The position numbers and the translations under genes are program-made. A stretch of 25,084 nt of DNA from a virus (Duplodnaviria > Caudoviricetes), in the IMG/VR virus record IMGVR_UViG_3300034073_000278, positions 1-25,084 of that record. The stretch is one strand, 5' to 3'. A model generated the notes under the pieces. It saw only the letters and a program-made list of their open reading frames with translations, ran no database searches and had not been told where the DNA came from. Numbering within the stretch: the first letter of the stretch is position 1; every line of letters starts with the position of its first letter. Below, piece after piece: positions 3-3,760 of this stretch.

Positions 3-500
3 CAAGGGGCAGTGGCAATTGCACACCTCAAAGGGGACGCCCTTGCCAATGCAGTCCTCAAAGCGACCACGAAAGCGATTAGGCGTGCAGTCCTCGCCCA
101 CTGTGGCCTCGGGATGCTTGACGAAACAGAAGCCGAAACAATCCCGGGGGCCAGAATGGAACCAGTGGTTCAAGTTTCAACAGAAGCCGCCCCGTCGGTT
201 GCAGCAGTCGTTGAGCAGCCTACCGACGGCATTGCTTTGATGGTGCCCGGGAGTGACGAGCCTTATGCCTATCACGAAACGATGGACGATTGGGCAGACG
301 CTTTCCTAACCATGATTGACAAGATCGCAGCCAACAAGAAGATGGACGCAGGCACCAAGCTATTGAAAATGTCTGACTTTGAGAAGTGCAACTCAAAGAA
401 CATTCACGAGCTTGCCCGTAACCACGAGGGCTTGTATCAGGTCTTCAGCAACGGCATTGGCACGGCACGGCGCTCGATAGATGAAGAAGCAAAAAAGTAG
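3..500 (+). CDS. 5'-truncated putative ssDNA-annealing/recombination protein, C-terminal part
   Basis: The frame is open from the window edge (QGAVAIAHLKGDALANAVLKATTKAIRRAVLAHCGLGMLDETE). The NAxxKAxTKAxRRAxLxxxGLG motif is typical of phage annealases, and the gene precedes SSB-like and resolvase genes. Confidence 0.65.
   Translation, partial: QGAVAIAHLKGDALANAVLKATTKAIRRAVLAHCGLGMLDETEAETIPGARMEPVVQVSTEAAPSVAAVVEQPTDGIALMVPGSDEPYAYHETMDDWADAFLTMIDKIAANKKMDAGTKLLKMSDFEKCNSKNIHELARNHEGLYQVFSNGIGTARRSIDEEAKK
491..497 (+). promoter_or_regulatory. Candidate -1 programmed frameshift slippery heptamer A_AAA_AAG
   Basis: Codons GCA AAA AAG TAG at 489-500. The -1 frame is open from 491 to the HTH stop at 724. 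Confidence 0.6.
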
Positions 501-538
501 CCGAGCCAGTCAACGGCACCCGCTTCAGTCAGTCAGAG

Positions 539-724
539 TTGATTCTGCGCTACATGGCAAAGGGCCACACTCTGACTGCACTAGAAGCCTTGCAGATGAT
601 GGGCGTGTTCAGGCTGGCGGCACGCATTGATGATTTACGTCGTAAAGGTCACAACATTGTGACAGAAGAGGTACAGGAGGGCGGTAAGTCGTTCGCCCGT
701 TATCATTTGGTGAAAGGAGTTTGA
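539..724 (+). CDS. Small winged-HTH DNA-binding domain (HTH_39-like), possibly expressed as a frameshift fusion
   Basis: ILRYM..G.TLTALEAL...GVFRLAARIDDLRRKGHNI.T...ARYHL pattern. The TTG start has no recognisable SD. Confidence 0.8.
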   Translation: MILRYMAKGHTLTALEALQMMGVFRLAARIDDLRRKGHNIVTEEVQEGGKSFARYHLVKGV

Positions 725-725
725 C

Positions 726-1001
726 ATGGCGTTTGAAAGACCACCGGGCACAGGTGCCCTATTTGCACAAAACAAACCTGACGGCAGCAAGGGGCCAGAC
801 TGGAAAGGTGAGCTGCTTTTAGATCAGGACTACAAGGCAGGCGATACCCTGAAGATGGCAGGCTGGATTAAGAGTACCGCTAAAGGGCCGCTAATCAGCA
901 TTAAAGAGGATACTTGGAAGCCAGACCCTAACTACAAGCAGAATCGGCAGCCAACGCCTTCTAAGAGCTTTGACGACATTGACGGTGACGTACCCTTCTA
1001 A
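726..1001 (+). CDS. Putative small phage ssDNA-binding protein
   Basis: GALF...PDWKG motif, acidic tail DDIDGDVPF as in SSBs, and a strong SD (AAGGAG) upstream. Confidence 0.7.
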   Translation: MAFERPPGTGALFAQNKPDGSKGPDWKGELLLDQDYKAGDTLKMAGWIKSTAKGPLISIKEDTWKPDPNYKQNRQPTPSKSFDDIDGDVPF

Positions 1002-1363
1002 TGTCTAAACTAGCACGAGATCGGGGGGCTAACTACGAGCGAGAGGTTGCCGCAGCCGTCTTTGATGCTTTGGGCATCAAGATCAAGCGTAACCTCAAGC
1101 AGTATCAAGAAGCCGACCACGGCGATCTTGAGCTTGGCCCTTTTCTGATTGAGTGCAAGCGCAGACGTAACATAGCCGTCTACGAATGGATGGAACAAGC
1201 TGACAAAGCATGTGACGCAGATCACACCCCAGTCGTAATTTTTAGGGGGGATGGGAAGAAGTCGATGGCCATGTTCCACCTAGAGGACGCATTGAAGTTA
1301 ATGGGTAATGAATTAACCCCACCTGAGCCAGAGCAGGGAGTTCCCGCAAAAGGAACAGATTAG
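1001..1363 (+). CDS. Putative Holliday junction resolvase, PD-(D/E)XK fold
   Basis: RDRGANYERE ... GDL ... IECKRR motifs; starts in a TAATG overlap with the upstream gene. Confidence 0.8.
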   Translation: MSKLARDRGANYEREVAAAVFDALGIKIKRNLKQYQEADHGDLELGPFLIECKRRRNIAVYEWMEQADKACDADHTPVVIFRGDGKKSMAMFHLEDALKLMGNELTPPEPEQGVPAKGTD

Positions 1364-3296: not shown

Positions 3297-3760
3297 TACG
3301 CCACCAATCCGTCTTCATACTGTGTTTTACCGTCCTTCGTCATTGCCGTCAAGGTCTGCATCTTAAGATCGTAAGAGTTGTAAGACACATGCACCCACCC
3401 GCTATCAGGTATGCCGGGGGTATAAAACTCCAAGATCAACTGCGTGAACTTAAGGTTATCCCTAATCCACTCGGCTAGGTCAGCATTGGCCACACCCGGT
3501 ATTTCTATGTCGGCTGCCATGCCCTTGCAATGGTCTGATCGGGGGCTGCCACCCACCTTGGCATTGACCAGCGGGTGCCTATAACCACTGTTGACCTTCA
3601 CGCCTTTACCGTAATGATCTCTTACGGGTTGCAATACTTTCTCGCAAAGAATCTTAAGGTTCTCAAGCTCGGTATCGCCCGGGTGGTTGCCCATGTTAAA
3701 ACGCAATGCCGTCTCGGATTTAGTCATCTCGGCTAGAGTAAAGTTCTTGGTTAGGTTCAT
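3296..3760 (-). CDS. Endolysin, peptidase M15 family zinc peptidase
   Basis: LTKNFTLAEM, NSGYR, SDHCKGMAADI (H..D ligands) and WVHVS. Start revised to ATG 3760, an ATGA overlap with the holin stop. Confidence 0.9.
   Translation of the reverse strand: MNLTKNFTLAEMTKSETALRFNMGNHPGDTELENLKILCEKVLQPVRDHYGKGVKVNSGYRHPLVNAKVGGSPRSDHCKGMAADIEIPGVANADLAEWIRDNLKFTQLILEFYTPGIPDSGWVHVSYNSYDLKMQTLTAMTKDGKTQYEDGLVA

Follow-up and report, generated by a model that had tools for sequence, protein, structure and literature searches.

The window, by which we mean the whole 25,084-nucleotide stretch of DNA that was analysed, is part of a tailed phage, with the major head and tail genes encoded on the opposite strand. 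The features considered here are found near its beginning, all on the plus strand:

3..500, +, Rad52-like single-strand annealase gene, 3′ part (PF04098, E 1.2e-4, above cut-off)
228..497, +, CTD of the annealase, about 90 aa, predicted beta-hairpin plus helices (from alignment; model pLDDT 85-93)
491..497, +, slippery heptamer A_AAA_AAG, -1 phase (C_CCA_AAG in many relatives)
497..529, +, putative trans-frame linker VAEPVNGTRFS, 5′ of any start codon
498..500, +, zero-frame stop TAG, abutting the heptamer (in 7/26 lineages the stop is 0-3 nt past the heptamer)
522..588, +, predicted mRNA hairpin over TTG 539 and ATG 554 (z -2.6)
530..724, +, HTH_39 winged-helix domain in the -1 frame (PF14090, E 8.8e-13)
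726..1001, +, SSB-like gene with its own SD and an acidic C-terminal tail (phrog_18154, E 0.002)
1001..1363, +, RusA-like / PD-(D/E)XK resolvase gene (phrog_244, E 1.4e-20)

The start of the annealase gene lies outside the window. In an identical relative (L002) the full protein is 277 aa long, and a YqaJ/RecE-like exonuclease gene lies upstream. Profile and predicted fold place the product in the Rad52 superfamily: in the model, a flexible linker connects a Rad52-like N-domain to a separate 90-aa CTD, the top Foldseek match of the N-domain is human RAD52 (E 7e-4), and comparison with yeast Rad52 gives a VIA Z of 7.4, a middling score. From its family and gene context, the protein would be expected to form rings or other oligomers and to anneal single-stranded DNA. 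The arrangement resembles that of the Rad52/Redβ/RecT annealases (EATR exonuclease-annealase pairs), with a Rad52-like or RecT N-domain, an exonuclease upstream, SSB and resolvase downstream and a separate CTD. It differs in that the CTD has no specific solved match (generic helical matches only, Z ≤7.5; matches in the Atlas are unnamed clusters) and is found in this phage group on annealases of both the Rad52-like and the RecT type (the window; L018, L038 and L126). According to PMC11611040, the CTD of Redβ binds exonuclease and SSB. No tRNA genes were found in the window or in four long loci. An anti-restriction protein comes first in the early region (window plus L471).

The domain in the -1 frame matches HTH_39 at full length: PF14090 covers residues 15-77 of the peptide read from 485 to 721 (profile positions 1-69 of 70) at 48.4 bits against a cut-off of 21.3, and the domain is also phrog_4973. 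No solved relative was found by sequence. The model has three helices and a wing (pLDDT 84), and its closest folds are winged helices (Stf76, ROK, MarR and TFE; best E 4.6e-3, all E >0.001). By profile and fold, it is classed as an HTH_39 winged helix, with predicted DNA binding. HTH_39 genes are usually stand-alone, mostly with their own ATG and mostly distant from annealase genes (18/18 HTH matches in genome contigs are stand-alone), unlike the copy in the window, which is start-less and would be reached by a change of frame. Database entries for this HTH start at ATG 554 and are truncated, and in one GenBank relative just 37 aa of it are annotated.

Some variants of the domain were seen in passing. 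In relatives, a compensating deletion and insertion fall within four bases of the wing (673-676 in the window). HTH_39 also occurs as the N-terminal fusion partner of an MT-A70-type methylase (PF05063) and of a PF22763 protein (P0002, P0006). In L107 (1998-2474), the HTH frame continues in frame into an SSB-like gene without its own N-terminus, giving a 159-aa HTH-SSB; this is a single contig and may reflect a deletion or an assembly error.

A slippery heptamer and a coding linker

In the zero frame, 480-500 reads GAT GAA GAA GCA AAA AAG TAG, which confirms the original prediction of an in-phase A_AAA_AAG at 491-497 directly before the annealase stop. The same prediction held that the -1 frame is shut at 482-484 and offers no start before TTG 539. 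Both points stand: after TGA 482-484 the frame is stop-free from 485 up to TGA 722-724, and its earliest start codons are TTG 539 and ATG 554. Neither has a recognizable SD, with anti-SD pairing energies of +0.9 and -2.2 kcal/mol, respectively, vs -6.3 kcal/mol for the SSB-like gene (calculated with an anti-SD hexamer that we assume). Helix 1 of the HTH had been said to begin 5′ of both starts, and the Gln at 530-532, which is invariant in 30/30 aligned relatives and starts helix 1 in the model, does precede TTG 539 and ATG 554. Within annealase bodies, X_XXA_AAR occurs in phase at 6/10,689 codons; since this background amounts to only ~1.6% per 28-codon window, a heptamer at the junction is more than chance would give.

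The stretch between the stop and the first start carries a signature of its own. Across eight close variants, the linker (503-538, read in the -1 frame) has five synonymous vs two non-synonymous codon changes; its AGCCAGT is invariant in 12/12 aligned sequences. Over 24 lineages (two of the 26, L154 and L229, were skipped in this count), the linkers add up to 298 codons free of stops. To judge from these patterns, the linker is evolving as coding sequence, 3′ of the stop and 5′ of any start.

Elsewhere in the window, an eight-A run at 2824-2831 creates an in-phase A_AAA_AAA near the end of the PD-(D/E)XK gene at 2403-2846, either a second shift-prone site or chance.

The junction in related annealases

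Related loci were gathered by the HTH, by the annealase or CTD and, independently of the HTH, by the N-domain. The 297 annealase loci yielded 276 complete junctions (21 truncated ones were left out), of which 162 are distinct: 111 have the HTH in the -1 phase with a heptamer, 47 have neither HTH nor heptamer, three have the HTH in the +1 phase without a heptamer and one has it in the -1 phase without a heptamer. Put differently, the heptamer is present at 111/112 junctions with the HTH in the -1 phase vs 0/47 HTH-less annealases. The sole -1 exception is L339, whose CTD is cut short by a premature stop and where A_AAA_AAG persists further downstream. An adjacent HTH is in the -1 phase in 112/115 junctions. 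As for the three +1 cases, L005 is a contig with a 1-nt indel, and in L338 and L347 the HTH has its own ATG and the heptamer is absent. Loci picked by the N-domain alone (144 complete of 160) behave in the same way, with a heptamer in 99/100 with HTH vs 0/42 without. Grouped at 60% identity, the site is found in 26/26 HTH lineages vs 0/18 HTH-less lineages bearing the same CTD. A metagenome scan, which partly overlaps the viral set, returned the -1 phase in 54/54 cases, 51 with the heptamer and three with the A_AAG core alone; PMC5009743 describes Z_ZZN as the minimal -1 motif.

The site is C_CCA_AAG in 17 of the 26 lineages, A_AAA_AAG in eight and C_CCA_AAA in one, and the annealases with a heptamer include Rad52-like as well as RecT-type ones. 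PMC4066793 and PMC5009743 place C_CCA_AAG and A_AAA_AAG among the top three motifs in E. coli. A tree of the CTD (built without L005 and L339, which have the indel and the premature stop, and without their duplicates, and with the site's own columns included) shows five switches of the first triplet of the site between CCC and AAA, and three changes between Rad52-like and RecT N-domains. Domain swapping between annealase families is what these sequences point to behind the shared CTD. The lineages are related, and the tree has just four well-supported independent contrasts, all concordant but with p = 0.125.

Codon choice at the site differs from that of the same dipeptides elsewhere. Pro-Lys at the site is written C_CCA in 18/18 cases vs 1/38 in gene bodies, and Lys-Lys is written A_AAA in 8/8 vs 0/44. 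HTH-less lineages that keep a terminal Pro-Lys use non-slippery codons (e.g. G_CCA_AAG in L193). Because the site codons differ in this way, selection appears to act on the RNA. The proposal that related phage loci would share AAAAAAG, the -1 phase and the linker is thus upheld for the phase, for a coding linker and for a slippery heptamer at this position, and amended in one respect: AAAAAAG alternates with C_CCA_AAG.

At the usual HTH start, ATG, GTG and TTG are all absent in 18/26 lineages. In 6/26, at least one member has an ATG there besides the heptamer. Heptamer and HTH-start ATG coexist in the L025, L151, L314 and L332 groups, and the ATG overlaps the annealase stop in L025 and L314; such lineages may make both free and fused HTH. 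The conserved heptamer, the phase, the coding linker and the lack of an HTH start in most lineages support the original reading, and a programmed -1 ribosomal frameshift very probably operates at the end of the annealase gene in many uncultured phages.

Two other explanations of the junction were weighed against this frameshift. One has the HTH translated on its own, through reinitiation or a non-standard start codon, with a heptamer that just reflects a conserved Lys-Lys or Pro-Lys. Gene callers do open the window HTH at ATG 554, and the L025, L282 and L314 groups have an ATG or TTG that shares bases with the annealase stop. However, the codons chosen at the site are far from those of the same dipeptides elsewhere, and the linker is conserved as if translated. 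In addition, TTG 539 and ATG 554 lack an SD, would cut helix 1 and are lost in L009. An HTH with its own start and no conserved heptamer or phase, the pattern that would speak for independent translation, is seen just in the +1-phase L338 and L347; the heptamer is missing where the HTH is missing or, in the +1 phase, self-started. We therefore rate separate synthesis as very improbable.

The other explanation, in which RNA polymerase slips on the A run or the sequencing or assembly is in error, is hardly credible. The window site does contain six A's, and L005 has its 1-nt indel nearby, but most lineages (the 17 with C_CCA_AAG) have three A's only and the -1 phase recurs at nearly every adjacent junction. 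Moreover, no indel is listed at 470-540 in the contigs of four runs (this covers contigs only, and the best run is possibly the window's source). That the contigs of the four runs list no indel here and that the junction recurs in diverged relatives argue that it is not an assembly slip. No RNA run is listed as containing this sequence. An indel that would let ATG 481 open the HTH frame, an outcome foreseen as damaging to the frameshift, was likewise not seen in those contigs, and ATG 481 is unconserved.

A natural in-frame annealase-HTH fusion was looked for and not found in any locus, viral or metagenome. Nor did one appear in nine long HTH proteins, 99 CTD proteins and 109 representatives, or among 120 listed proteins out of 474 long Rad52-type ones; an HTH profile run over 337 proteins matched P0001-P0009 only, none of them an annealase fusion. 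These searches took in at most 8000 candidates and, for long annealases, the Rad52 type; their outcome is weak evidence that would fit selection for a low ratio of fusion to annealase.

In two HTH-less Rad52-type lineages, the HTH slot holds a 165-170 aa CPCC-motif protein with its own ATG (L349 2349-2852, L193 1776-2288).

Possible stimulatory signals and expected yield

SD-like pairing of -6 kcal/mol or stronger is found 7-12 nt 5′ of the heptamer in 13/26 lineages vs 2.4% of background positions, with a peak 7-10 nt ahead of the heptamer; PMC5009743 gives an SD spacing of 9-14 nt for -1 shifts. The residues encoded at this stretch differ between lineages, and Gly codons are GGR in 13/18 vs 192/448 cases (p 0.016). 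The window lineage is one without an internal SD (+0.3). Downstream, no conserved stem adjoins the site (50-nt mean z -0.19 vs -0.24 for the control), and the consensus RNA structure is at -2.1 kcal/mol, with compensatory changes in 0/11 pairs and no covariation. A GCCG/CGGC stem at 500-517 had been noted after the site; it is lost in L006-L009 and is not the stimulator.

In these respects the site can be set beside dnaX and the IS911/IS3 family. It shares with them a motif of the A_AAA_AAG or C_CCA_AAG class and, in half of the lineages, an upstream internal SD. Unlike dnaX and IS911, it shows no conserved 3′ stem-loop (the type of structure modelled) at their customary spacing. Moreover, the dnaX frameshift of E. 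coli shortens its product, whereas the annealase frameshift would lengthen it.

The predicted hairpin at 522-588 has a counterpart in 6/6 close relatives, with no covariation. More generally, the 5′ mRNA of the HTH is more structured in 26 linked genes (mean z -1.66) than in 49 stand-alone ones (-0.33; p 3e-5). Given its position over TTG 539 and ATG 554, the hairpin likely hinders independent initiation and might possibly serve as a distal stimulator.

Unstimulated motifs of this kind yield ~0.3% in E. coli, with a maximum of 3.7% in a good 3′ context. With no SD (+0.3), no nearby stem and such low unstimulated yields in E. coli, the fusion is likely a minor product in the window. On the E. 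coli figures, we would put the yield at no more than a few per cent.

A proposed dosed winged helix on annealase oligomers

We propose that most ribosomes would stop at TAG and release the 277-aa annealase. A minority would slip, the tandem tRNAs on Lys-Lys moving back one base so that Val is read at 497-499, and these ribosomes would add 75 residues to give an annealase-HTH fusion of 352 aa, a predicted and so far unannotated protein. In about half of the lineages, the internal Shine-Dalgarno 7-12 nt upstream would aid slippage. The fusion would then enter the annealase oligomer and provide a few subunits with a winged-helix grip on duplex DNA. Mixed oligomers of this type would assist the exonuclease-annealase-SSB-resolvase pathway as an accessory, their stoichiometry being set as in lambda G/GT. 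Taken as a whole, this account (a minority -1 slip producing a scarcer fusion that joins the oligomer and tethers it to duplex DNA) seems to us likely, with real room for doubt. PMC11783212 describes the annealases of this superfamily as assembling into rings or chains and as having low affinity for duplex DNA. Because annealases bind duplex DNA poorly, a dosed winged helix would tether the oligomer to it; we would call it an even bet that a winged helix on few subunits does so for annealase rings.

The module is accessory/dispensable, since 0/6 complete HTH-less relatives hold HTH_39 elsewhere in the genome (positive controls were found in 4/4). This also bears on a second use of a real frameshift, in which the scarce fusion, as a regulator, would bind a specific phage site (early promoter/origin repeats) and so link recombination with transcription or replication. 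Low-level frameshifting would suit such a regulator, and the winged helices closest in fold to the HTH are those of transcription factors, at E values that all exceed 0.001. An early intergenic region of L471, which is identical to the window over their overlap, has iteron-like repeats (3312-3378), and the scanned proteins of the window and L471 (a subset of ORFs) include no PHROGs match to a polymerase, primase, helicase, initiator or integrase. Nevertheless, the HTH-less relatives show that the HTH is not an essential initiator. A sequence-specific regulator is at odds with a recognition helix that hardly differs between linked copies and stand-alone ones of unrelated phages, an argument that is partly circular as the motif was used to find loci. 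We regard the regulator as unlikely.

The repeats deserve a description of their own. They are AT-rich tandem repeats of 17 nt, placed where gene blocks diverge, and are accompanied by several TGGATAC copies and one TTATCCACA, which is DnaA-box-like. Repeats, TGGATAC copies and TTATCCACA together are candidate origin features (L471 3312-3378 and 5245-5625, L466 2834-2854).

The winged helix could instead dock a protein, such as SSB or the resolvase, and so pass on the annealed product. RecQ and RPA32 offer examples of winged helices with SSB tails or repair factors as binding partners. The HTH gene is usually right before the SSB-like gene, and L107 has HTH and SSB in one frame. Yet the same SSB directly follows the annealase in HTH-less phages, most stand-alone HTH_39 genes are not near an annealase gene, and L107 is one contig. 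Docking is the less probable of the two alternative uses, and we consider it quite improbable.

To return to tethering by mixed oligomers, the closest precedent is lambda G/GT, described in PMC5009743 as a low-level -1 shift near the gene end with a 30:1 ratio, its site kept across phages of low similarity. Here too, a second domain would be appended by a -1 shift late in a phage gene. Unlike in lambda G/GT, the gene belongs to early recombination and not to morphogenesis, the added domain is a winged helix and the module is lost in many relatives. The lambda G/GT family is defined by a position between the major tail and tape-measure genes and by tail-chaperone products; the window site lies in an early exonuclease-annealase-SSB-resolvase module. 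PMC5009743 also locates phage frameshifts mainly in tail-chaperone, capsid and tail genes, in agreement with the original prediction that they are mostly known from tail chaperones and capsids.

The mechanism of frameshifting is thus known, and the class of gene, an annealase, appears to be new. No annealase frameshift came up in a literature search of titles and abstract beginnings. The terms 'frameshift' and 'helix-turn-helix' do not occur in two annealase reviews (PMC11611040, PMC11783212), and the main text of a frameshift survey (PMC3711429) contains none of 'RecT', 'annealing' and 'Rad52'. The PMC4066793 supplements list three unnamed prophage candidate clusters. If the account is true, one recombination gene would give two products, from a conserved recoding site in DNA recombination that is found on two annealase types and has natural losses as controls. 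It would also offer a direct test of how an annealase of low duplex affinity might be aimed at double-stranded targets, a question of relevance to recombineering enzymes.

More tentatively, the CTD, slippery site and HTH may form a portable cassette grafted onto Rad52-like and RecT-type annealases. A widespread phage group would then build mixed rings by programmed -1 shift, as a dosed route to duplex targets (for strand invasion or recombination-dependent replication) in phages without a recognisable replication initiator. This wider reading is possible, and we lean against it.

The earliest genes of L471 (3477, 4456, 4709 and 4890) share the start context AAGGGGC-NN-ACCATG, which also occurs in L461 and L466.
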